From: Eledone cirrhosa
Taxonomy: Eukaryota
Direction: 5' to 3'
DNA length: 64,000 nt
Assembly (NCBI GenBank): GCA_964016885.1
Contig: CAXHJY010001213.1
Coordinates: 11,312-75,311 of the forward strand
Part shown: positions 8,529 through 62,323 of the stretch, in pieces
Numbering within the stretch: position 1 is the first letter of the stretch
How the letters are laid out: every line of letters starts with the position of its first letter
Translations under genes and position numbers: made by a program
Notes under the pieces: model-generated
Databases searched by the model: none
What the model was told of the DNA's origin: nothing
What the model saw: only the letters and a program-made list of their open reading frames with translations

Positions 8529-8533
<5 letters not shown>

Positions 8534-8639
8534 AACAAGTAAGACCCCGACGGCTGAGCTCAAGCCGTTTCGACGGATAATTCTGACAGAGTTAGCCGTC
8601 GAAACGGCTTGAGCTCAGCCGTCGGTGTCTTGTTCCTAT
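8529..8639. repeat. Fold-back palindrome built from the 3' half of a hammerhead
   Basis: Arms GACGGCTGAGCTCAAGCCGTTTCGACGG / CCGTCGAAACGGCTTGAGCTCAGCCGTC. Each strand reads GAAA-CGGCT..AGCCG-TC (stem III plus GUC) but has no CTGANGA. Confidence 0.75.
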
Positions 8640-8838
8640 TACCCACTCTACTACCCTATATATATATAGATATAGATAGGTAAATATACACGGGTGTGTA
8701 TGATTGTGTATAGAAGATTATATTAAGAAGAGGAATTCCAACTTTGTCTGATTTACTCGTTTTATTTACAATCCTTTCAAATATATAATGGTATTATAAT
8801 GAAATAGTATGATAGAATATTAAATTCTAAGTGTTAAT

Positions 8839-8877
8839 TGAACAAGTACTTTCATGCTTTCGCAATCTTCAGGTTCA
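8839..8877 (-). ncRNA. Minimal type I hammerhead (left arm of palindrome)
   Basis: Reverse complement of the motif at 8966-9004. Confidence 0.8.
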
Positions 8878-8965
8878 TAAGATGTGGTGACAGTCGAGTT
8901 TGCAATTTTCAACTGTTGAAATTTTTACAGTTGAAAATTGCAAACTCGACTGTCACCACATATCA

Positions 8966-9004
8966 TGAACCTGAAGATTGCGAAAGCATGAAAGTACTTG
9001 TTCA
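8966..9004 (+). ncRNA. Minimal type I hammerhead (right arm of palindrome)
   Basis: TGAAC CTGAAGA T-TGC-GAAA-GCA-T GAAA GTAC TT GTTCA: stem I 5 bp, stem II with GAAA tetraloop, palindromic stem III GTAC. Confidence 0.8.
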
Positions 9005-9400
9005 ATTAACATTTAGAATTTAATATTCTATCATACTATTTCATTATAATACCATTATATATTTTAAAGGATTGTAAATAAAACGAGTAAATCAGACAAA
9101 GTTGGAATTCCTCTTATTAATATATATATATATATATACATACATATATATATATATATATATACATACATATATATATATATATATATACATATATATA
9201 CATGTAGATAAATCTACCAAAAGTTTACGGTAGTGTCCAATCCGTATGAAGAACTCAATGTAATCCGGATATCATGGAAAGAAGAGATGCATTCAAAAAT
9301 CACTTTCGGTGAAAGATAAACGGAATACAGAATCAAGATAAAATATTAAAAAAATAATGAATAAAACAATGAAACAGTTCCTTATATTAAAAAAAAAAAG

Positions 9401-9553
9401 TTCATTATTTAACGATCGTTTCTAGGACATATATGTGTTAGAATTGGCATGCATATTCAACAGATCTATGTACAAAATTATACAAAATTATGCAAACTAT
9501 CAAATAGAATATACATACCAACACATACATATGCCGTCTTCAGAAATAATGAA
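9401..9553 (-). ncRNA. Type I hammerhead with long stem II (paralogue of 1781-1934)
   Basis: Minus strand reads TTCATTATTT CTGAAGA ...long hairpin... GAAA CGATCG TT AAATAATGAA. The core and stems I and III are identical to the 1781 copy while the flanks diverge. Confidence 0.85.
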
Positions 9554-9947
9554 ATATATTTATTGATAATAACAACAATTCAAAATTACAGGTCTGTTTG
9601 GGAACAGAGTTCAAATAGACCAATGAAATACACAAAAATATATCAAGAAAATACAGTTAGGTGTGTGTATATATGTAAGTAACTTCGTCCAAAGATATGC
9701 ATAAAAATGTATGTTCACATGCATACGCATGTCGAAAAAATGTATGTAAATACAAAAATTCAGGGCTAATGTCTCTGTATGTTTATAATCTACAGACAAA
9801 ATACACATACGTATACATACATATATACACTCATATATACACACATATACATACATATATACACTCATATATACACACATATACATACATTCATACACAC
9901 ACACACGCATATACACATAAACATACACATACCCACGAACATACACA

Positions 9948-10020
<73 letters not shown>

Positions 10021-10250
10021 GTATATATTATTATTATAACTATATGGATATTGAGGCGCACACATAAATACTGCAACATATACTTACATCTAGATGCAGA
10101 ACTAAAAATAGGTAAAGGGAGTCAGTAATTACAGAGGGTGTCAGACAACAGCCTATTTATAAAAATGTATCTATAAATTTAGAAATAAAAAGAAATATAT
10201 TAAAAGAAATAAACAAGTAAAATATATACTCATACATAAAATACACACCG

Positions 10251-10325
<75 letters not shown>

Positions 10326-10728
10326 TATAGAGAGACATATACATATACATATATAAACATACACATACACACATACATATATATATACATGTACTCACAA
10401 CACACATATATATACACATATATGTACACACACATACACACATACATACACATACATATATATATATACACACATATATATACACATATATATATACACA
10501 CATATATATATACATACACGCACATATATATACACACACACACATACATATACGTATATATACATACACATACACATATACATGTATATATATACACATA
10601 CAACCCCACGCTCACACACAACTCAGACGTACATAAATATAGAGATATACATACACACATATATATATATATATAGATATATACATACATATAAATATAT
10701 ATACACACACATACATACACACACACAT

Positions 10729-10778
<50 letters not shown>

Positions 10779-11189
10779 ATAAATAAATACACACAGTCAG
10801 ACAATTATGCGCATATATACACATACATACACACATCTCTACAAATATATATACACATACACATACATACACACACATATATATACATATATATATATAC
10901 AATCATACACACTTATTTACATGCGCACATATGTATTTTTATACTCACATACAAACACCCAAACATACATACATACTTACATACACATACATACATCCAC
11001 GCTTACAAATACGAATAATTATAGGGGGGGGGGGAAGGGGATTAAAATTATTAGTGGGAAATAGTAAATATAGGTTTCAAGGAACATAGAATATTAATCT
11101 GCATTTAGATCATAATATGTGTTTACATAGTAGTTTCAGTATTAGGAAATGTAAGAAAGAAGGCAAAATTATGCATTTTAATATAAGTA

Positions 11190-12085
11190 GACTATTAATT
11201 ATAGGTTAACTAAATTAAAAATAGTTAATATATTGATTTCTAAGGTGTATACTACTTAGGTTTATAATATTTAAAGCGGAATTTTGAAGTTAAACAGTAG
11301 TAGAGTATTAATTATAGCATAACTAAATTAAAAATATTAACATTATGGTATCAATTTTAGGAAATGAATTTAGTAATAGGGAAAACCAAATCAAGTATTT
11401 CATCGGTAGTAGCATATAAATTATAGGTTAACTAAACTAAAAATTATATATTAATTTCTATAGTATATGTTAATTAGGTTTATAATAATTAAAGCAGATT
11501 TTGTATTTTATCTATAGTAGAATATAATTATAGGTTAACAAAAATTAAAATTAATCTATATATTTATTTGTAAAGAATATATTAATTAGGTATATATTTA
11601 AAAGTTTTTCTCAGTTTATGATTACATGATATTCTGCAATCCATCTGTATTAGAATTTTAATTTTAAGCTAACTAAATTAAAATTATAGGTTAATTAAAT
11701 TAAAATTAATTTATAAATTAATTTCTAAATTGTACATTAATTAGGTTTATAATATTAAAAAGTATTTCTCTGTTATTGATTACACGATATTTTGTTATAT
11801 TTCATCTGTAAAGGAATTTTAATAAAAGGTTAAATAAACTAAAATTAATCTATAAATTAATTTCCAAAGTATATATTAATTATGTTAATAATATTTAAAA
11901 GTTTTTCACAATTTATGATTACACAATATTTTTTTAATCTCATCTGTAGTAGAATTTTAATTAAATTAAAGTTATAGGTTAACTACATTTAAATTAAATT
12001 ATATATTAATTTCTAAAATATATATTATTAATTAGGTTTATAATATTTAAATGTTTTTCTCAGTTTATGATTACACGATATAATT
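11190..12085 (-). repeat. Degenerate tandem repeats (about 110-150 bp) of the PLE ORF 3' end
   Basis: Recurring blocks TAATTAGGTTTATAATATTTAAA..TTTTCTCAGTTTATGATTACA and TTATAGGTTAACTAAATTAAAA match the last codons ([15 protein letters not shown]) of the adjacent ORF. Confidence 0.75.
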
Positions 12086-12760
12086 AATTCCTGTCGCTTA
12101 TTTAATAGGATATCCTTAGATTTCATTATTTCAAATAGTTCTTGGGAACACAATCTACATTCATTTCTATTATTTTGATAAGGGGTGGCTCTTTTGAGCA
12201 CACTCCAGGTCATATCATATTCTATATTCTTATTTCTATAACTATTAATTTTTTCTGCTAGAGATGTTGTATTAGCCAGTGCGGCATTTTTAAAAAAACT
12301 ATGTTTGTGGGTATTAAACCTTACCTTAAAATTGTTAGAAGTAGCTCCGATATATGAGCAAATAGAATCTTTAGTTTTAACTTTACATTTATAAACTATG
12401 TTGTTAACAAGACAATTTCCTTTTAATGGGCAGTTTGCTTTGTTTCTACAGTTACAACCTTTCGTTAATTCTGTATTTGAGGAGATATTATGGTTAGTTT
12501 GATGTATTGGTGGTATACTTATGGTTTTTTTACATTTATATGCATTATAGGCACTTATATTTTGTTTTATGTTTTTGGTTGTTGAGTATGAGAATTTAAC
12601 TGTTGATCTATTTAAGATTTGATGGTATTTGTGGTTTGGCGGGAAGTTTTTCTCTAGGATATAAACAAATTTTTTAGCAATATTATCCTTAATTTGTAAA
12701 TTAAATGGAGCATTATACCAAGTAACTCGTCTATTACGGTTTCTATGTTGTTTATTATTT
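12028..12760 (-). CDS. Penelope-like (Naiad-type) linker plus GIY-YIG endonuclease, 5'-truncated
   Basis: [41 protein letters not shown]...[31 protein letters not shown]. Homologous to 61274-62323. The N-terminus in the ORF track is a microsatellite artefact. Confidence 0.9.
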
Positions 12761-12823
12761 TTATAGGTTATACATACATATATATATATACATATATATA
12801 TACATATATATATATATACATAC

Positions 12824-12861
<38 letters not shown>

Positions 12862-12957
12862 CTATATATACATATATATATATACATACATATATATACA
12901 TATATATATATATACATATATATACATATATATATACATACATATATATATATATAT

Positions 12958-12988
<31 letters not shown>

Positions 12989-13055
12989 CATATATATACA
13001 TATATATATACATACATATATATATATATATACATACATATATATACATATATAT

Positions 13056-13096
<41 letters not shown>

Positions 13097-13113
13097 CATA
13101 TATATATATATAT

Positions 13114-13168
<55 letters not shown>

Positions 13169-13170
13169 CA

Positions 13171-15035
13171 TATAGACATAGAATATTCGAAAATATTCTG
13201 TATGTTTATAATAAACATTTTGAAGACCTAATCGCTATAGAATAGAATACGTCACGTATTACAATTAGATTCTCGATAAAAGCAAGGGAAGTAATCTACG
13301 CGTTTCATTCTCGTTAGAAATCATCAGGACTACATATCCAGTGCTTTTATCGAGAATGACACAGCTAGAGACTTATAGAATACTTAGCTGTGTACAGGAA
13401 CTGGTTTGAAAGAGCGGTTGCCGGTCCGGCAGAAATTAGAAATTGGAATAAATGCTCTGAAATAGCGATATATATGTGAATATAGACATAGAATATTCGA
13501 AAATATTCTGTATGTTTATAATAAACATTTTGAAGACCTAATCGCTATAGAATAGAATACGTCACGTATTACAATTAGATTCTCGATAAAAGCAAGGGAA
13601 GTAATCTACGCGTTTCATTCTCGTTAGAAATCATCAGGACTACATATCCAGTGCTTTTATCGAGAATGACACAGCTAGAGACTTATAGAATACTTAGCTG
13701 TGTACAGGAACTGGTTTGAAAGAGCGGTTGCCGGTCCGGCAGAAATTAGAAATTGGAATAAATGCTCTGAAATAGCGATATATATGTGAATATAGACATA
13801 GAATATTCGAAAATATTCTGTATGTTTATAATAAACATTTTGAAGACCTAATCGCTATAGAATAGAATACGTCACGTATTACAATTAGATTCTCGATAAA
13901 AGCAAGGGAAGTAATCTACGCGTTTCATTCTCGTTAGAAATCATCAGGACTACATATCCAGTGCTTTTATCGAGAATGACACAGCTAGAGACTTATAGAA
14001 TACTTAGCTGTGTACAGGAACTGGTTTGAAAGAGCGGTTGCCGGTCCGGCAGAAATTAGAAATTGGAATAAATGCTCTGAAATAGCGATATATATGTGAA
14101 TATAGACATAGAATATTCGAAAATATTCTGTATGTTTATAATAAACATTTTGAAGACCTAATCGCTATAGAATAGAATACGTCACGTATTACAATTAGAT
14201 TCTCGATAAAAGCAAGGGAAGTAATCTACGCGTTTCATTCTCGTTAGAAATCATCAGGACTACATATCCAGTGCTTTTATCGAGAATGACACAGCTAGAG
14301 ACTTATAGAATACTTAGCTGTGTACAGGAACTGGTTTGAAAGAGCGGTTGCCGGTCCGGCAGAAATTAGAAATTGGAATAAATGCTCTGAAATAGCGATA
14401 TATATGTGAATATAGACATAGAATATTCGAAAATATTCTGTATGTTTATAATAAACATTTTGAAGACCTAATCGCTATAGAATAGAATACGTCACGTATT
14501 ACAATTAGATTCTCGATAAAAGCAAGGGAAGTAATCTACGCGTTTCATTCTCGTTAGAAATCATCAGGACTACATATCCAGTGCTTTTATCGAGAATGAC
14601 ACAGCTAGAGACTTATAGAATACTTAGCTGTGTACAGGAACTGGTTTGAAAGAGCGGTTGCCGGTCCGGCAGAAATTAGAAATTGGAATAAATGCTCTGA
14701 AATAGCGATATATATGTGAATATAGACATAGAATATTCGAAAATATTCTGTATGTTTATAATAAACATTTTGAAGACCTAATCGCTATAGAATAGAATAC
14801 GTCACGTATTACAATTAGATTCTCGATAAAAGCAAGGGAAGTAATCTACGCGTTTCATTCTCGTTAGAAATCATCAGGACTACATATCCAGTGCTTTTAT
14901 CGAGAATGACACAGCTAGAGACTTATAGAATACTTAGCTGTGTACAGGAACTGGTTTGAAAGAGCGGTTGCCGGTCCGGCAGAAATTAGAAATTGGAATA
15001 AATGCTCTGAAATAGCGATATATATGTGAATATAG
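13171..15035 (-). repeat. Tandem array of 6 x 310-bp units, each with a minus-strand hammerhead
   Basis: TATAGACATAGAATATTCG recurs at 13171, 13481, 13791, 14101, 14411 and 14721. The first HHR is at 13269-13357 (-). Confidence 0.97.
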
Positions 15036-17931
15036 ATTAGGTCTTCAAAATGTTTATTATAAACATACAGAATATTTTCGAATATTCTATGTCTATATTC
15101 ACATATATATCGCTATTTCAGAGCATTTATTCCAATTTCTAATTTCTGCCGGACCGGCAACCGCTCTTTCAAACCAGTTCCTGTACACAGCTAAGTATTC
15201 TATAAGTCTCTAGCTGTGTCATTCTCGATAAAAGCACTGGATATGTAGTCCTGATGATTTCTAACGAGAATGAAACGCGTAGATTACTTCCCTTGCTTTT
15301 ATCGAGAATCTAATTGTAATACGTGACGTATTCTATTCTATAGCGATTAGGTCTTCAAAATGTTTATTATAAACATACAGAATATTTTCGAATATTCTAT
15401 GTCTATATTCACATATATATCGCTATTTCAGAGCATTTATTCCAATTTCTAATTTCTGCCGGACCGGCAACCGCTCTTTCAAACCAGTTCCTGTACACAG
15501 CTAAGTATTCTATAAGTCTCTAGCTGTGTCATTCTCGATAAAAGCACTGGATATGTAGTCCTGATGATTTCTAACGAGAATGAAACGCGTAGATTACTTC
15601 CCTTGCTTTTATCGAGAATCTAATTGTAATACGTGACGTATTCTATTCTATAGCGATTAGGTCTTCAAAATGTTTATTATAAACATACAGAATATTTTCG
15701 AATATTCTATGTCTATATTCACATATATATCGCTATTTCAGAGCATTTATTCCAATTTCTAATTTCTGCCGGACCGGCAACCGCTCTTTCAAACCAGTTC
15801 CTGTACACAGCTAAGTATTCTATAAGTCTCTAGCTGTGTCATTCTCGATAAAAGCACTGGATATGTAGTCCTGATGATTTCTAACGAGAATGAAACGCGT
15901 AGATTACTTCCCTTGCTTTTATCGAGAATCTAATTGTAATACGTGACGTATTCTATTCTATAGCGATTAGGTCTTCAAAATGTTTATTATAAACATACAG
16001 AATATTTTCGAATATTCTATGTCTATATTCACATATATATCGCTATTTCAGAGCATTTATTCCAATTTCTAATTTCTGCCGGACCGGCAACCGCTCTTTC
16101 AAACCAGTTCCTGTACACAGCTAAGTATTCTATAAGTCTCTAGCTGTGTCATTCTCGATAAAAGCACTGGATATGTAGTCCTGATGATTTCTAACGAGAA
16201 TGAAACGCGTAGATTACTTCCCTTGCTTTTATCGAGAATCTAATTGTAATACGTGACGTATTCTATTCTATAGCGATTAGGTCTTCAAAATGTTTATTAT
16301 AAACATACAGAATATTTTCGAATATTCTATGTCTATATTCACATATATATCGCTATTTCAGAGCATTTATTCCAATTTCTAATTTCTGCCGGACCGGCAA
16401 CCGCTCTTTCAAACCAGTTCCTGTACACAGCTAAGTATTCTATAAGTCTCTAGCTGTGTCATTCTCGATAAAAGCACTGGATATGTAGTCCTGATGATTT
16501 CTAACGAGAATGAAACGCGTAGATTACTTCCCTTGCTTTTATCGAGAATCTAATTGTAATACGTGACGTATTCTATTCTATAGCGATTAGGTCTTCAAAA
16601 TGTTTATTATAAACATACAGAATATTTTCGAATATTCTATGTCTATATTCACATATATATCGCTATTTCAGAGCATTTATTCCAATTTCTAATTTCTGCC
16701 GGACCGGCAACCGCTCTTTCAAACCAGTTCCTGTACACAGCTAAGTATTCTATAAGTCTCTAGCTGTGTCATTCTCGATAAAAGCACTGGATATGTAGTC
16801 CTGATGATTTCTAACGAGAATGAAACGCGTAGATTACTTCCCTTGCTTTTATCGAGAATCTAATTGTAATACGTGACGTATTCTATTCTATAGCGATTAG
16901 GTCTTCAAAATGTTTATTATAAACATACAGAATATTTTCGAATATTCTATGTCTATATTCACATATATATCGCTATTTCAGAGCATTTATTCCAATTTCT
17001 AATTTCTGCCGGACCGGCAACCGCTCTTTCAAACCAGTTCCTGTACACAGCTAAGTATTCTATAAGTCTCTAGCTGTGTCATTCTCGATAAAAGCACTGG
17101 ATATGTAGTCCTGATGATTTCTAACGAGAATGAAACGCGTAGATTACTTCCCTTGCTTTTATCGAGAATCTAATTGTAATACGTGACGTATTCTATTCTA
17201 TAGCGATTAGGTCTTCAAAATGTTTATTATAAACATACAGAATATTTTCGAATATTCTATGTCTATATTCACATATATATCGCTATTTCAGAGCATTTAT
17301 TCCAATTTCTAATTTCTGCCGGACCGGCAACCGCTCTTTCAAACCAGTTCCTGTACACAGCTAAGTATTCTATAAGTCTCTAGCTGTGTCATTCTCGATA
17401 AAAGCACTGGATATGTAGTCCTGATGATTTCTAACGAGAATGAAACGCGTAGATTACTTCCCTTGCTTTTATCGAGAATCTAATTGTAATACGTGACGTA
17501 TTCTATTCTATAGCGATTAGGTCTTCAAAATGTTTATTATAAACATACAGAATATTTTCGAATATTCTATGTCTATATTCACATATATATCGCTATTTCA
17601 GAGCATTTATTCCAATTTCTAATTTCTGCCGGACCGGCAACCGCTCTTTCAAACCAGTTCCTGTACACAGCTAAGTATTCTATAAGTCTCTAGCTGTGTC
17701 ATTCTCGATAAAAGCACTGGATATGTAGTCCTGATGATTTCTAACGAGAATGAAACGCGTAGATTACTTCCCTTGCTTTTATCGAGAATCTAATTGTAAT
17801 ACGTGACGTATTCTATTCTATAGCGATTAGGTCTTCAAAATGTTTATTATAAACATACAGAATATTTTCGAATATTCTATGTCTATATTCACATATATAT
17901 CGCTATTTCAGAGCATTTATTCCAATTTCTA
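15035..17931 (+). repeat. Tandem array of 9.3 x the same 310-bp unit, inverted, each with a plus-strand hammerhead
   Basis: GATTAGGTCTTC recurs at 15035, 15345 and every 310 bp to 17825. It is the reverse complement of the left array and ends in (TA)n. Confidence 0.97.
15221..15309 (+). ncRNA. Type I hammerhead of the 310-bp unit (representative of 15 copies)
   Basis: Distal stem I ATTCTCGATAAAAGCA/TGCTTTTATCGAGAAT (16 bp), internal loop, proximal stem I GTAGTC/GATTAC, CTGATGA (15251-15257), stem II TTCT-AACG-AGAA, GAAA (15272-15275), palindromic CGCG, cleavage after GTA (15281). Confidence 0.92.
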
Positions 17932-18035
17932 TATACATATATATATACATACATATATATATACATACATATATATATACATACATATATATATACATAC
18001 ATATATATATACATACATATATATATACATACATA

Positions 18036-18074
<39 letters not shown>

Positions 18075-18120
18075 GCATACATACATATATATATATACAT
18101 ATATATATATGCATACATAC

Positions 18121-18168
<48 letters not shown>

Positions 18169-18178
18169 GCATACATAC

Positions 18179-18244
<66 letters not shown>

Positions 18245-18245
<1 letters not shown>

Positions 18246-18460
18246 GGGATAGCGACCAAAAGTTTACCCTAAAATGGGAAAAATTAGCTAAAACCCAAAG
18301 CTTTTCCAGGAGCCAAAATTTCTGCAAATTGTGTAATCTTGAGATTTATTACATAATCACACACAAGAAGAAACTGCTGAATAACAGAATTGAACGAACA
18401 TTATTCTGCCGTCACAGAACTAAAACCCTTTTTTCCCACTACAAGCCGAATATTACATAA
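18245..18460 (+). pseudogene. C-terminal fragment of a PLE GIY-YIG endonuclease
   Basis: FTLKWEKL...[12 protein letters not shown]...LLNNRIE..FCRH....YKPN aligns by eye with the C-termini of the 12028 and 61274 ORFs. Confidence 0.85.
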
Positions 18461-18781
18461 AAGAGGGACATCCCCCAACTATATAAACCTTAATCTAGTT
18501 AGAAAAATATAAAAACAATCTCTTCTCAACATATATTAATAACCTTAAATTACCATACTAATAATGAAAAGATATGCTGATGAGAATAGATACAAATATG
18601 CGAGAATGAATGTGTCTAAAAACGTCCATAAGTATGTATATATATGTGAAAATGTATATAAATAAGTAAATATATATATATGTTTGATGTGTATAGTTAG
18701 ATGTAAGTGTATTCATGTATTAAAGTGCTTATATATATATATGTATGTATATATGTGTATATGTATGTGTATGTATATATG

Positions 18782-18856
<75 letters not shown>

Positions 18857-19422
18857 ATGTATGTATATATGTGTATATGGATGTGTAAGTATGTGTATGT
18901 GTGTACACATGGACTAGAGTATGTATGTATATATGAGTGTGTCTATACGTGTGTATATAAAGATAAGTTGAGTATGAAAATGTATACACATGAGCGCGTA
19001 TGTATGTATATGAATACATGTGTGTATATAAAAGTGTATGCATGTGTATATATATGTAAGTATGAATATGTGAATTGTGAGTATATGTATTTTGTAGAGG
19101 TGTGCAAATATATTTGTGTGTGAATGCGTGGGTGAAAGGATACGTACACTTGAAAGAAAAATTTAAGTCTGAATGTTAATTAAGTGCAAACACAAAACCA
19201 ACCACGCATATCTTTACTATCTCTAATCCTTCTATAGATTTAGAAAAATAACCAATAATATATTCTATAAAAAATGTCAAAACAACAGATGGGAATCTAA
19301 TTACTCACTGCCACCAAGAATTCTCACTGCTATCGAAAAACCACTCCTTCAACTATTCTTCTAACAACTTCACCCCTCCCTCCTAATATTCTCTATAAAA
19401 ACTAAATAGGTCCTCAGTAATA

Positions 19423-19539
19423 TTATTCTGATGAAATGACAGTAAATAATAACATTGAAATATTGAATGTCTGCATAACTAAAAGTTTGTAGATAGCTGT
19501 TTTAGGTTATGTAACTGTTATAGAAACACGTGTCAATAA
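19423..19539 (+). ncRNA. Type I hammerhead with long stem II
   Basis: TTATT CTGATGA, stem II base ATGACAGT/ACTGTTAT, GAAA CACGTG TC AATAA: palindromic stem III and a GUC site. Confidence 0.85.
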
Positions 19540-19573
19540 ATTCCTTTCAACTAAACTGTATCCATTCAAATCT

Positions 19574-19642
<69 letters not shown>

Positions 19643-19707
19643 TACATACATATACATATATATATATATATACATACATATATATATATATATATACATA
19701 CATACAT

Positions 19708-19764
<57 letters not shown>

Positions 19765-20730
19765 CAGGTTTAGCAAATAATGAAAAAGTTTCAAAATAAA
19801 TTTTAAAAAATTGACCTATTGGCATATATATATATATAAAGAGAGAGAGAGCGAGAGAGGAATTGTAAGGAAATAACTCCCATACATATTTTTTTCTATA
19901 ATTCTGAAGAATAGAAAAAAAAAAAAAAATTGGGTAAATGCTGTGGCTGATAATGCCTTTGAATTAATTTCTGTAAAAGATATTAATATAAAAAACAAAC
20001 AAACAAATCTTATAGATTCTATTTTTTTGAAAATTATAGTTGTTTGGGGTTGTTTCAGACCACAACCCATACAATAAAGTCCTTGCTAGGTCTGACCCAG
20101 ATGCGTTATGGTTAATAGTTTGTTCCAGGCTTGGCCAACAAACATGGAGTGGCTAATTTGATTCGTATCTCTTCAGTTCTTTTAGCAATACAGTTTGTTA
20201 AACGTATTATTTGTTTCCCATACGAATCTTCAGCAACCCTCCACCTGATCTTTTGTAATAGTCTTTTACATAGATTGAGCCTTTTACATTGAAGCTACTA
20301 TAGACTAACTTGGGATCCCATAGTGGCCGATGGCATCTTCTTTTTCCGTCTATTAAGGGTCTTCCCCCTATTTTATAAGCTACTTCATCGCATCTCTACG
20401 GATGAGAACACCATCCTTTACATTATTAATTCAATAAAAATTATATATTGGTTTTGGTTTAAATTAAAACGCAGAAAAATAATCATATATTATATTTGGC
20501 TTCAATGAAATAGAAACAGAAAAAGTCCAAGCAATGATACATAAATCCTTACTGTTATACATTAGTTAATTGAAAGTACATTTAAATGTATCATTTATGA
20601 CTTGAGTAAAAAAAAAAAATGAACTTGATAACTTGTTAAGTCCTGGCGAAGATTCGTAACCGTCATTTGCTGGCCTTGTGCCTAACGTAGAAACAATTAT
20701 TGATTTAATTATATTATTTTTTTTATTTAA

Positions 20731-20950
20731 AGGCGGTGGATTGGCAGTATTGGTAGAGCGTCGCACAACAATCTTAGCGACATAGAGTTACAGCCCTTTA
20801 TGTTCTGAGTTCAAATCCCGCCGAGGTTAGCTTTGCCTTTAATCATTTACAGAGTCGATAAAATAAAGCACCAGTAATGTAGTGGTGTTGATTTAATCGA
20901 CTTTCCCTCCCTTAAAATTGTTGGCCTTGTGTCTAAATAGAAACAATTAT
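20731..20950 (+). mobile_element. tRNA-derived SINE, family 1 (octopus-type)
   Basis: A-box-like TGGCAGTATTGG, B-box GAGTTCAAATCC, core CTTTGCCTTT..GTCGATAAAATAAAG, tail GGCCTTGTG..TAGAAAC. More than 15 further copies are in the window. Confidence 0.85.
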
Positions 20951-20985
20951 TTTTTATTTAAGTGCAATAAATAAAATAATATACA

Positions 20986-21160
20986 TAATTGTTTCTACTT
21001 TTGGCACAAGGCCAGCAATTATTCCAGTGCATTACCGTACTTTATTTTATCGATCCCGTAAGGATGAAAGGCAAAGTTAACCTCGAAGGGGACTTGAACT
21101 CAGATCGTAATTCTATGCTGCAAAGCATGGCGTCCGACCCTCTAACGATACTGCCAATAA
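20986..21160 (-). mobile_element. SINE family 1 copy
   Basis: GTTTCTACTTTTGGCACAAGGCCAGCAA..AGGATGAAAGGCAAAGTTAACCTCG..TTGAACTCAG. Confidence 0.85.
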
Positions 21161-21884
21161 TAATAATTTGTTCTATTTCACAGAAAAAAATAATATATTT
21201 AAATGAATTTATAGATGAGATTTCAATACCTGTCGGGACCGAGGAAAGAATGAAATAATTAGTTTTAAAATTTCAGCTGAGTAAAACTTTATATACAATT
21301 ATTTTATTTAGATGAGGTGTCTCAAACATGTTGCCGGCAAACTACTTTTCTATGGCCCACAGCAGAACAATTTTCGCGACAATTTAAGGAAAATGTTCAA
21401 CAGAAATTTTGTCCTCCTATATATTATATTAATTCATGTATCTGTAAGATATATTTTTGATCGCCAAGTGAACTTGAATAAACACGCAGTTCACATAATT
21501 TTAACAGACCATTTGCACATGCCTTGCCCAAACAGTTTGGAGGTCTCGGTTTGAGTAAATAACATCTCTGTCTCTACCTGCTTTCTTTCCTCCATCCACG
21601 TTTGCTCCCTTTTAGTGAACATCCTCTCCTTTCCAACATGGACTAGTTCCACCAGGGAGATGGAGGAAGTTTTAATTCAGTGGATAGAGCTGGGTTTGTC
21701 AGTTCCTGATACTGACAACGATAGACGGAAGCAGAGAGTATGGGCAATCTTCGTTCGAGCGAAACATTTAACTTTAAACTATCATAAGGTTTAGTTGGTA
21801 TTTATCTTTCAACATGCCTTTAGGCTCTTTATTTTAGATGAAAAAGAATGAGATGCTATGATTTATTTTTTAGGATCTCAATAA

Positions 21885-32752: not shown

Positions 32753-32797
<45 letters not shown>

Positions 32798-34360
32798 GGA
32801 AATAATTCCCATACATATGTTTTTCTATAATTCTGAAGAATATTTTAGAAAAAAAAAAAAAAAATAAATTGGGTAAATGCTGTGGCTGATAATGCCTTTG
32901 AATTAATTTCTGTAAAAGATATTAATATAAAAAACAAACAAACAAATCTTATAGATTCTATTTTTTTGAAAATTATAGTTGTTTGGGGTTGTTTCAGACC
33001 ACAACCCATACAATAAAGTCCTTGCTAGGTCTGACCCAGATGCGTTATGGTTAATAGTTTGTTCCAGGCTTGGCCAACAAACATGGAGTGGCTAATTTGA
33101 TTCGTATCTCTTCAGTTCTTTTAGCAATACAGTTTGTTAAACGTATTATTTGTTTCCCATACGAATCTTCAGCAACCCTCCACCTGATCTTTTGTAATAG
33201 TCTTTTACATAGATTGAGCCTTTTACATTGAAGCTCCTATAGACTAACTTGGGATCCCATAGTGGCCGATGGCATCTTCTTTTTCCGTCTATTAAGGGTC
33301 TTCCCCCTATTTTATAAGCTACTTCATCGCATCTCTACGGATGAGAACACCATCCTTTACAATATTAATTCAATAAAAATTATATATTGGTTTTGGTTTA
33401 AATTAAAACGCAGAAAAATAATCATATATTATATTTGGCTTCAATGAAATAGAAACAGAAAAAGTCCAAGCAATGATACATAAATCCTTACTGTTATACA
33501 TTAGTTAATTGAAAGTACATTTAATTGTGAATAAAAAAATAAAAAAATTAACTTGATAACTTGGTAAGTCCTGGCGAAGATTCGTAACCGTCATTATTGA
33601 TTTAATTATATTATTTTTTATTTAAAATAAAGTACCAGTAATGTACTGGGTAATTGCTGGTCTTGTGCCAATAGTAGAAGCAATTATTTTTTATTTAAAG
33701 GCGGTGGATTGGCAGTATTGGTAGAGCGTCGCACAACAAGCTTAGCGACATAGAGTTACGACCCTTTATGTTCTGAGTTCAAATCCCGCCGAGGTTAGTA
33801 GTGGGGTTGATTTAATCGACTTTCCCTCCCTTAAAATTGTTGGCCTTGTGTCTAAATAGAAACAATTATTTTTTATTTAAGTGCAATAAATAAAATAATA
33901 TACATAATTGTTTCTACTTTTGGCACAAGGCCAGCAATTATCTCCGTGCATTACCGTACTTTATTTTATCGATCCCGTAAGGATGAAAGGCAAAGTTAAC
34001 CTCGAAGGGGACTTGAACTCAGATTGTAATTCTATGCTGCAAAGCATGGCGTCCGACCCTCTAACGATACTGCCAATAATAATAATTTGTTTTATTTCAC
34101 AGAAAAAAATAATATATTTAAATGAATTTATAGATGAGATTTCAATACCTGTCGGGACCGAGGAAAGAATGAAATAATTAGTTTTAAAATTTCAGCTGAG
34201 TAAAACTTTATATACAATTATTTTATTTAGATGAGGTGTCTCAAACATGTTGCCGGCAAACTACTTTTCTATGGCCCACAGCAGAACAATTTTCGCGACA
34301 ATTTAAGGAAAATGTTCAACGGAAAAATGTTCCCCCTATATATTATATTAATTCAAGTAT
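32735..34360 (+). repeat. Segmental duplication copy 2 of 19827-21440
   Basis: Near-identical, with indels inside the SINE portion. Confidence 0.92.
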
Positions 34361-34780
34361 CTCACTTACTGACATGCATATTCATTTTGATGAAAAATAA
34401 ATGAAAGAATATATAAATAAATAACAGTCTATCAGCTGTGTGAAGGCACGTGGTCTTGTGGTAATCGTGATATCGTAGGTTCGATTCTTGAGCTGGGTTG
34501 TGTGTTGTGTTCTTCGCGTTGCTCCAGTGTACTCAGATGAAAACGAGTACCAGCAATAGCTGGGAGTTTAACTTTGCGATGGACTGGTGTCCTGCCCATG
34601 GTTGGGGCGGGGGGACTTGGACTCTCAGTCGCTTCACACTAGCAACGGCTCAACGTGCTGCTTGCAGCGTACGAGGGCAAGCATGCTATCAGCTGTATTG
34701 TAGATTAACATTATAAAAGATGGAAATCACGCCCTACCCACCACCTAATTTCACTTTTCGTCAACAGTACCTCTTCCCCA

Positions 34781-59561: not shown

Positions 59562-62323
59562 ATGGCTAAGCCTTGTTCCCTTGTGGTCCTACGTGCGTAC
59601 TCACGAGGCAAGACTGGTGATCCTGTGAGTGCGCAGGTGAAAGTTTACTTGCCTTTATCTCTGAAAAATATTCCCACCCCCTCTAAGAATACTTACCTAA
59701 AACTACTGATAGCTAGTGTTAACTCCTTTGTAAAATGGATTAGATGGCGTGCGTTTCACTACGATAGTAATAAGAATAGGAAGGACCCCAGGAATAGAAC
59801 ACATTTTAATAAATACGGCTTCAAAACTTATAAGAGCCCACCACACAACATACTATTAGATAGTTTCGAAGGTGACTTACTCTCTCTGGTCAAAAATGTT
59901 AGGTTTAGGCTAAATATTAGACATAGAAACAATAGTAATTTTGATAAATTCCAGTCCAGACTTAAAAATATTGTTAAGGGTTTCGGTGAGAATAAGTCCA
60001 TTCTGGTCCCGGCAGATAAGACTAAGAATCTATACTCCATGGACTATAGTACATACCGCGATTTTATTTATAAAGAGTTATTTAGAAACTATAAAAAACT
60101 ACGCTTGAGAATTTGAACCACATCAATAGTGAGGGCCTTAGAATAGTCTCTGACCTCGGACTCGATAAGTATACCCAGCCATATTACCCTCGATAACCGA
60201 GATTCACACTTAAGGACCATAAGGTTGATTTTATTAGTAACCCCTCAGTTAGACTTATCTGTCCTTCTAAGTCGGATATAACCATTATCAGTAAAAAAAT
60301 CCTTGACCTTATTATACCAGATGTTAGGGATAAGGTTAATTTTAACCTATGGGGGAACACTAGGGAAGTTATAGATTGGTTCTCTGGGATTAATAGACTT
60401 GAATCTAATAAGTTTATCCAATTCGATATTGATGCCTACTACACATCAATTTCACCCATCCTCCTCAATAAAGCCTTAATGTTGGCCATGAGAGTGTCCA
60501 GCCTTACACGATCGCAGGTAGATATTATACTAGCAGCCCGTAAAACTATTATTAAATTTGAGGACACTTTTTGGACCCGTAAAAACACGCCCAATAATTT
60601 CGACGTTACAATGGGTTCGAGTGATTCGGCCCAGGTTACTGATCTTGTTGGGTTGTTCCTCCTTAATGAACTATACGCTACCTTCCCGCACCTTATAGGC
60701 GGACTATATCGTGATGATGCATTGTTTGTAATTAACTCTAGTACCAACAATGTAGAACTTAATAAGAAGAAGCTTTATAAGTTTTTTAAAAGCTACAACC
60801 TTTCAATCACGATAGATAGAAATGATAGAGCGGTTAACTTTTTAGATGTGACTTTGGACTTGGCCACTAATAGTTTTAAACCCTTCCATAAGCCTAATGA
60901 AATCCTTTCTTATGTTAGCCCCAATTCTAACCACCCTAAGTCTATGATAAACTCTATAATTAAGGGCGTTTCTAATAGGATTTCCACACTATCTAAGGAC
61001 ATAGGAACTTTTAATGAACATGCGGAGTACTACAATAATGCCCTAGCAAATTCAGGTCACTCTAGTAAAATAAATTATAATAATAGTAACTTTAGAAAGT
61101 CTCCGCTTACTCTTAATAATAATAACATTATATCACATAACATCGCCATGAATGGGAGTAGCAAACATAGTAACCGTAGAACTTATATAGGAGTATCTGA
61201 ACCCACCCATAAGTTATCCCACCGGACTCGTAATAGCAAATATAATACCTCTAGGAGATAAGTCGAGCCCCCTGTGCGCTCACGCATTGGAGTTGGTTTG
61301 GCTGGATCTTATTCTAGTAATGTTGCTCCTACTGATCCTATCATTGGCCTTAATCCTCTTGTAGGGATTCCGGACAACAGCGGATCTACTGGAGGTAGAA
61401 ACTATAATAGGCATAACGAAATTATGGCTGATTCTATGAATGTGGCCTCAACTATTCCCGATAGTAACCCTAGTCTCGACGGTGGGACATTTGATAGAGG
61501 TAGGGTCGATAAGAATAAAAATAAAAATAGAAGGCGATTAAATACTTATTTCAACCCGCCATATAACCAGGATGTATCAACTAATATCCCTAGGTCTTTC
61601 TTCACTATCTTAGAGAAAAATTTCCCCCCTTCTCACAAATACCATGGTATTTTTAATAAAAATGTTATTAAACTCTCATTCTCTACCACCCCTAATATTA
61701 GTTCTCATTTAGCTAGCACTAATAATAGGAAAATTAGGGATGGATTCTCCTCTCTACATACTACTAGTCTGAATGCATCGGACAATGCTTTACCACCAGA
61801 ACAGTCCTTATCTAATAGAGGTCCTACGTGTAATACATCACCACTCGAGCCAACCAATAACACCCGGAAGTGCAATTGTAGAGTGAGTGCTAACTGCCCT
61901 CTAAACGGTAACTGCCTTTCTAAGAACATTGTCTACGCTTGCGAGGTTATAACTAATTCCTCTAAAAGAACGTATATAGGATCTACTTCAAACACTTTTA
62001 AGACTAGGTTTAACTCTCATATCTCTAACTTCAAACATGTTAGGTTTAAGAATTCTACCTCTCTAGCGCATTATATCTGGGATCTTAAGGGAGCTTATAT
62101 ACCATATAGCCTTAACTGGTGTTTAGTAGCACGATCTAACCACCTTTCTGCACATAGTAAGTTTTGTAATCTCTGTATACTTGAGACACACTCTATTATT
62201 TTCTCTAGCGTACCCTTACTGAATAGAAAGTCTGAGATATTCTCTTCTTGCCCCCATGCCATTTCTAATTCTTATTTTTATTATAAACCCAAATGTTCTA
62301 GTAGTACAAATTGTACCCATTAG
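59562..62323 (+). pseudogene. Near full-length Penelope-like element (Naiad-type) ORF: RT plus C-terminal GIY-YIG, with three lesions
   Basis: SLKNIPTP, VPADKTKNLY, TLKDHK, RLICPSKS, QFDIDAYYTSI, FDVTMGSSDSA, GLYRDDAL, NFLDVTLDL, SNHP, FNPPYN, CNCR..CPLNGNCL, IVY..YIG, CNLC..E, LNRKSE. Frameshift in an A6 run near 60098; in-frame TAA at 60194 and 61259. Confidence 0.92.

Follow-up and report, generated by a model that had tools for sequence, protein, structure and literature searches.

Non-LTR retrozymes of animals (those without long terminal repeats, LTRs) have been proposed to spread when a primed circular RNA is copied into tandem cDNA, with Penelope-like elements (PLEs) named as candidates for the task (PMC7229834). 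Circular templates or mobilization by PLEs have also been suggested elsewhere (PMC4209133, PMC7761336), and a preprint (bioRxiv 10.64898/2026.07.22.740005) that reports co-occurrence with PLEs and pseudo-LTR (pLTR) homology favours local amplification and calls the mechanism unresolved. PLE insertions have hallmarks of their own, an inverted arm and a tail of 30–40 bp at one end (PMC8557442, PMC3846280). In vitro, purified PLE protein cuts both strands and extends them from two neighbouring positions on the RNA, which mark the limits of the tail; this system shows no difference between the strands, and a dimeric protein is predicted (PMC11167929). The enzyme that moves animal retrozymes and the origin of the inverted arms and one-sided tail of PLEs are open questions in this literature. 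Here we analyse a stretch of 64,000 nucleotides (nt) from Eledone cirrhosa (the window; GenBank assembly GCA_964016885.1, contig CAXHJY010001213.1, forward-strand positions 11,312–75,311), in which a head-to-head array of a 310-nt unit lies between fragments of two PLE families, here called HyA and HyB. We consider it probable that this central array is a single insertion, made by a PLE reverse transcriptase (RT) that was primed from each of the two cut strands of the target, with a single predicted RNA circle as the template, and went round this circle several times. PLE involvement is argued by the ends of the array, which carry the PLE signature of one long and one short end.

The left arm of the array (window 13170–15036, minus strand) comprises 6.02 identical units and the right arm (15035–17931, plus strand) 9.35, with 0 mismatches in either. 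They meet head to head at 15035–15036 with an overlap of 2 nt (GA). When the unit is numbered from window position 15036 as position 1, the left and right arms begin at unit positions 57 and 310, respectively, so that the junction is an imperfect rather than a perfect palindrome. The outer end of each arm, which is the 3′ end in the RNA sense, runs into a tract of (TA)n/(TACA), the target flank of the array (12769–13174 on the left, 17930–18245 on the right). On the left this end lies at unit position 63, which we call the short site, and on the right at unit position 106, the long site.

This architecture recurs throughout the 3.0-Gb assembly. A 35-nt core pattern has 4,085 exact matches in the genome, and a long-end pattern finds 1,219 TA-joined long ends, which is a minimum for the family; short ends are about as numerous (607 on the plus strand and 957 on the minus strand, the latter with double listings). 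The first 100 core matches define ten unselected arrays on one contig, C1, nine of which run minus then plus, with junctions that are all different. In these nine mirrored arrays and in that of the window, the outer end of each arm is a 3′ end in the RNA sense and adjoins TA, and all ten have one end at unit 99–106 and the other at 63–75, an offset of 29–43 nt.

Two further samples give the same pairing. Sixty regions at listed long ends, chosen outside the unselected set and with the duplicate region L150 dropped, contain 62 insertions, of which 4 are single-armed and 3 open-ended. Of the two-armed ones, 4 have an end that is masked or falls beyond the region, and the other 51, with both ends visible, all combine a long with a short end. 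Four of the unresolved insertions pair with a short end by coordinates, as read from the end lists. Twenty short ends without a listed long partner yielded 7 single-armed and 13 two-armed insertions, and the latter (which include one with an 11-nt long arm and two read by eye across a single-nucleotide polymorphism) all pair short with long. Overall, each of the 74 two-armed insertions with both ends has one arm at unit 99–108 and the other at about 63–75, and there are no long/long, short/short or adjacent tail-to-tail arms among them. The short end is used as a class rather than as an exact base because unit 66–75 resembles TA and pushes a variant-tolerant end caller to 75. An apparent local duplicate at L117 makes a few of these counts non-independent, and target-site duplications are unreadable in TA tracts. 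Single-armed, TA-joined insertions are a regular class, with 11 among the arrays. End coordinates also delimit two-armed insertions of about 9 kb (C1 36481953–36490794) and about 15 kb (C1 97461499–97476484), the second of which would contain about 48 units.

Both arms of an insertion come from one template type. They carry the same haplotype in 38 of the 41 pairs in which both arms span a full unit, even though these pairs include 20 haplotypes, 15 of them singletons; permutation of the arms gives a mean of 5.2 such matches and a maximum of 13 in 10,000 trials. In 36 of 61 insertions the long-end arm exceeds the short-end arm in length, and in 25 it is the shorter of the two (medians of 3.9 versus 3.1 units). 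Inner ends are spread across the unit (p = 0.21 against a uniform distribution), and the phase differences between them are flat. Among 62 junctions, 38 are free of gaps, and 27 of these 38 overlap by at least 2 nt (18% expected), typically by 2–5 nt; nine of the junctions and ten of the arm pairs were entered by hand from the analysis of the unselected arrays and the window. At L101 (3882–4059) the same junction occurs twice in one array, the two copies being separated by a short inversion.

The unit itself fits a young non-LTR retrozyme family, judging from its sequence. It is tandemly repeated with a period of 310 bp, low in GC (about 0.33–0.35) and dispersed, it has a predicted type I hammerhead in each copy, and it shows no LTR architecture; apart from TA-tract read-throughs at the edges, the arms contain no open reading frame (ORF) of at least 80 amino acids, so they are taken as non-coding. 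The hammerhead of the first plus-strand unit is predicted at 15245–15287 (plus strand; unit 210–252), with cleavage after window position 15281. It would consist of a 6-bp stem I (GUAGUC/GAUUAC), CUGAUGA, stem II and GAAACGCGUA with a palindromic stem III, and the core motif CUGAUGA/GAAAC..GUA occurs with its stems in every unit. All hammerhead calls in this study are based on core motif and stems because no Rfam hammerhead reached the gathering score anywhere in the window. The fold of the unit has a z-score of −3.3 against 100 shuffles, which does not prove a circular RNA. Among the sampled insertions, the variants that are fixed in the two arms include 11 substitutions in unit 186–274, a descriptive tally of few sites: each of them lies at N7 or in loop 2, or preserves a pair or forms a new one, none lies in the catalytic core, and two 1-nt insertions sit in stem I.

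Related repeat families of 313–331 nt have unit positions ~305–140 in common with this unit (69–81% identity) and differ from it around the hammerhead. They occur at L157:3245–4049, L134:7030–7543, L036:2591–3023 and L148:1971–2391, and further at L032:7717–8126, L212:3635–3715 and L246:2935–3049; the repeats at L157 and L134 are likewise head to head and TA-joined. The common stretch contains both end sites, and its sequence makes it a candidate cis signal for the mobilizing RT. The L246 copy of this module lies upstream of a Hydra-type ORF and was rejected as part of an autonomous partner, with TA tracts and other repeats intervening.

In the mechanism that we propose, arrays would be transcribed, and the RNA would cleave itself and circularize, as the hammerhead motif and the work on other animals (PMC7229834) suggest. 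A PLE protein, likely a dimer, would then nick both strands of a (TA)n tract; the targeting of TA is seen in the insertions, and the nicking follows the in vitro system (PMC11167929). One strand would prime at unit ~99–108 and the other at ~63–75, where the ends of the insertions lie. Each RT would pass one unit and go on around the circle until it stopped independently of the other, which would leave arms of the observed lengths with uniform inner phases. The two cDNA ends would finally be joined head to head through the overlaps of 2–5 nt or the short fillers found at the junctions. Where one priming failed, a single TA-joined arm would be expected, the class to which both fragments that flank the window array belong. 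The circle, the dimer, strand displacement, the use of the same molecule for both arms and the identity of the PLE are the parts that we infer. A more specific form of this mechanism would be a double rolling circle, in which a dimeric PLE RT grips one 310-nt circle at two sites about 35 nt apart and both enzymes run round it, one primed by each cut strand. A satellite-like array, with as many as 20 or more units, would thus be born in a single step, and the strict pairing rule would reflect the general origin of the inverted arm and tail of PLEs; for this extended proposal we see the chances as evenly balanced.

Several observations weigh against double priming on one circle. The arrays examined come from contig C1 and the window only. 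Three of the 41 arm pairs differ, at one site each, and shared haplotypes could reflect one source locus that is active at a time rather than one molecule. Arm lengths correlate positively (rho 0.41, p = 0.001), which counts against full independence of the two runs, and 24 of the 62 junctions have filler bases in place of an overlap, one of them a 272-bp foreign spacer (L111:2133–2406). The tails of HyA and HyB (137 and 113 nt) exceed the 29–43 nt of the unit. A pLTR comparison within the Hydra clade, for which 30 of 1,223 N-termini were sampled, gave no significant match of the unit to HyA, HyB or any of 10 further Hydra 5′ regions (best p = 0.06). The search of these regions and of the sampled loci yielded no autonomous partner; in the loci, blastn and a hidden Markov model of the conserved module returned other short repeat copies only.

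An alternative that we judge unlikely is fold-back, in which a rolling, target-primed cDNA self-primes the second arm and a staggered cut by the PLE endonuclease opens the hairpin to leave one long and one short end. It likewise predicts shared haplotypes, microhomology at the junctions and the paired ends, and self-priming has already been proposed for PLE palindromes (PMC3846280). The correlated arm lengths speak for it too, as do two small palindromic elements in the window (described below) and the near-perfect palindromes in about 4 of 20 HyB loci (L177, L183, L185 and L175), which are what fold-back would give and thus a further point against double priming. However, fold-back predicts small loops, whereas the inner phase differences of the retrozyme arms are flat over 0–310 nt, arms differ by up to 10 units and either end class may be on the longer arm. 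In vitro, moreover, two start sites on the RNA serve for direct extension of both strands (PMC11167929). We also regard as quite unlikely a PLE-type two-armed insertion of a short or linear multimeric RNA to which most units were added later by local amplification, through unequal exchange. Local amplification has been proposed for vertebrate retrozymes (bioRxiv 10.64898/2026.07.22.740005), linear multimeric retrozyme RNAs exist in the axolotl (PMC7229834), and some arrays exceed 22 units. Yet both multimeric arms carry the same private variants in every unit across the inversion, with few changes private to a unit, and the 15.4 units of the window arms are free of mismatches. Each unit also has a predicted hammerhead, which would cut a linear multimer; local amplification may add units, but it cannot create paired ends. 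Identical units in a mirror are also typical of artefacts from chimeric fold-back reads. An assembly artefact is nevertheless extremely improbable here, given that dozens of loci differ in their junctions, have unequal arms and fixed, asymmetric ends, and carry haplotypes of their own; contigs from an independent public short-read run, X3, have TA-joined loose ends at both sites (unit 75 and 106), which argues in the same direction. The public runs listed for this sequence are six, of unrecorded type and none of them marked as RNA, and in the four that were compared no contig bridges the junction of the window array; we conclude nothing from either result.

The remaining question concerns the 10-kb mirror that the array forms with its flanks. 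The original prediction described an ordered series in which everything to the left of 15035 is on the minus strand and everything to the right is on the plus strand, with two different PLEs facing outwards; this order and these strands are borne out, and the PLE fragments do belong to different families (33% amino acid identity over 64 residues, and 43% between full ORFs of other copies). It offered two explanations, repeated insertion into one (TA)n hotspot or consecutive template jumps by one PLE RT. The first is supported by the structure, as each piece has its own TA-joined 3′ end and TA tracts of 315–405 bp separate the pieces. A composite, in which one RT jumped from HyA to the array to HyB, or in which all three pieces travel, or arrived, as a set, appears very unlikely. 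In its favour, the left fragment ends at its long site and the right one at its short site, as in a single two-armed event, and outward Hydra fragments occur on both sides of the arrays at L126 and L106. In both of these regions, however, the piece on the left is unrelated to the one on the right, and single-armed, TA-joined insertions such as the flanks are regular. The orientation bias and co-occurrence that linkage would entail are likewise absent: in 579 kb of flank from 79 array-bearing regions, 14 Hydra ORF fragments point outwards and 11 inwards (p = 0.69; an element between two arrays is counted once each way), and their density is 4.3 per 100 kb compared with 3.3 in 40 control regions from the same part of C1 (p = 0.51). 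Within 1.5 kb of arrays, six fragments point outwards and five inwards. This absence of bias is conservative because detection by ORF would undercount inward-facing copies. The test proposed with the original prediction thus speaks against a special link. Consecutive template jumps find no support, and no sequence in common between the unit and either flanking family was detected. The inner mirror is far beyond chance because head-to-head arms are the normal structure of the family, whereas, with a palindromic TA target, two flanks would both face outwards in one case out of four by chance. At the 10-kb scale, the symmetry thus combines an inner mirror that the family imposes with an accident of orientation, of one-in-four odds, at a TA hotspot. 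The locus is likely to have grown by three separate insertions into the same (TA)n hotspot rather than as one nested element, with Hydra fragments that arrived independently. The earlier suggestion that the layout physically links the array to its mobilizer holds only in part: the adjoining fragments are not specially linked to the array, but PLE mobilization is strongly supported by the array's own one-long/one-short ends.

The flanking fragment on the left, HyA, is a 5′-truncated, single-armed element (9205 to ~12770, minus strand) with a GIY-YIG C terminus, whose ORF tail runs from 12771 to 12031 on the minus strand, and a 2.8-kb 3′ untranslated region (UTR) with microsatellites. HyB, on the right, is also 5′ truncated and single-armed (18246–19577, plus strand) and retains the last 70 amino acids of GIY-YIG and 1.1 kb of 3′ UTR. 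Both are joined at their 5′ side to TA, and their 3′ ends adjoin (TA)n target tracts (9120–9200 and 19577–19762, respectively). HyA ends at the long site of its family and HyB at the short site, the long site being 113 nt further on. Pfam gave no GIY-YIG match to either window fragment at E ≤ 1. The motifs listed for the Hydra clade in PMC8557442 would place both families there: a CxCx5C linker (CNCRNKANC in HyA, CNCTYPDNC in HyB), CxxC (CRLC, CKLC) and CxH (CNH, CRH). In the full-length copies at L168 and L096, HyB reads RVRWK and ADKTS and HyA reads RVRWR (a K-to-R variant) and SDKTG. Both families also have a C-terminal GIY-YIG, DKT in place of DKG, a (TA)n target and a predicted hammerhead near the 3′ end. 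Both are young; the best 150 matches to HyA are at least 97% identical and the best 150 matches to the HyB fragment are 100% identical, and uninterrupted ORFs of about 810 and 773 amino acids exist for HyA and HyB, respectively.

Insertions of these families follow the same rule as the retrozyme. Among 20 HyB loci, head-to-head mirrors have one long and one short end in 13 of 13 cases, and the rule holds in 4 of 4 HyA insertions from 20 regions, two of which share flanks. A resemblance of the long end of the unit to the short end of HyB was set aside as not significant against shuffles (p 0.08–0.31). The type I hammerhead of HyA, which had been placed at the 9205 end of the element, is instead predicted at 9543–9411 on the minus strand, with a 9-bp stem I, a CUGAAGA core, a 114-nt hairpin as stem II and GAAAC-GAUC-GUU with a palindromic loop. 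That of HyB (also type I; 19428–19534, plus strand) would have an 88-nt hairpin as stem II and GAAAC-ACGU-GUC. Hairpins of 88–114 nt (−24 and −38 kcal/mol) in the position of stem II, seen also in the upstream regions of L234 and L248, would escape descriptors made for short stems; a short-stem hammerhead scan overlooked the HyA motif and that of the unit. The 3′ UTR of HyA (window 9800–12081) has its own microsatellites and degenerate tandem repeats of 56–291 bp, which are kept across copies.

Elsewhere in the window, two small, near-perfect palindromic insertions in TA (8657–9188 and 8531–8645), each with a hammerhead-like core and with extra sequence at one end alone (about 50 and 20 nt), likely derive from other PLE families, as short remnants with two arms. 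At 61517–62290 on the plus strand lies a third GIY-YIG fragment of Hydra type, with about 40% identity to HyA, and at 340–1988 an older HyA-like piece of 3′ UTR. The window also includes a 1.6-kb direct duplication (19840–21443 and 32769–34362, 95–98% identity) and a family of short palindromic repeats at ~20.7–22.4, 25.7, 29.1, 33.7, 36.1, 42.3, 46.6, 47.7, 54.6 and 57.0 kb.

Compared with described systems, the array most resembles the metazoan non-LTR retrozymes (PMC7229834; 10.64898/2026.07.22.740005), which have a non-coding, low-GC tandem unit of 150–450 bp, a type I hammerhead in each unit, dispersed multimers and co-existing PLEs. The evidence for PLE involvement in those papers is co-occurrence, shared hammerheads or pLTR homology, whereas here the insertions themselves have a PLE-type anatomy and no pLTR homology was found. 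The searched passages of both papers do not describe head-to-head arms, fixed paired ends or a tail, and none of the papers listed in searches of the open-access literature describes head-to-head retrozyme arrays in its title or the opening of its abstract. The insertions of endonuclease-positive (EN+) PLEs (PMC8557442, PMC3846280; Poseidon of Anolis, PMC11167929) share with the array an inverted, 5′-truncated arm in head-to-head orientation, a tail at one end, an AT-rich or (TA)n target and two fixed ends. They differ in that the passenger here is a non-coding multimer, copied past unit length in both arms, and in that pairing of one long with one short end, which is ‘optional’ or ‘often’ found in those papers, is strict (74 of 74), with arms of one haplotype. 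HyA and HyB resemble the PLEs of the Hydra clade (PMC8557442) in their C-terminal GIY-YIG, CxCx5C, RW[KR], DKT, CxxC and CxH motifs, hammerheads and (TA)n targets, and differ in their tails (113 and 137 nt rather than 30–40), in the 88–114-nt stem II hairpins and in the 2.8-kb 3′ UTR of HyA.

The layout of the flanks is itself ordinary; what is new is strong genomic evidence, from inside the array, on an open mechanism. More than 1,200 insertions of a young non-coding passenger with a PLE footprint are mechanistic rather than correlative evidence for mobilization by PLEs, and they argue that tandem arrays arise at insertion and not by later local amplification. They also make exact predictions for the existing in vitro assay, namely starts near unit 101 and 66, one per strand, and multi-unit cDNA, for which the young Hydra families with intact ORFs in the same genome are ready candidates. 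A last parallel is the twin priming of LINE-1, in which both target strands prime on one RNA and produce a head-to-head inversion joined by microhomology; there, the internal site at which the second primer anneals varies, and the two arms contain different parts of the RNA. In the array studied here, by contrast, neither start site varies, and the same sequence has been copied over and over into the two arms.

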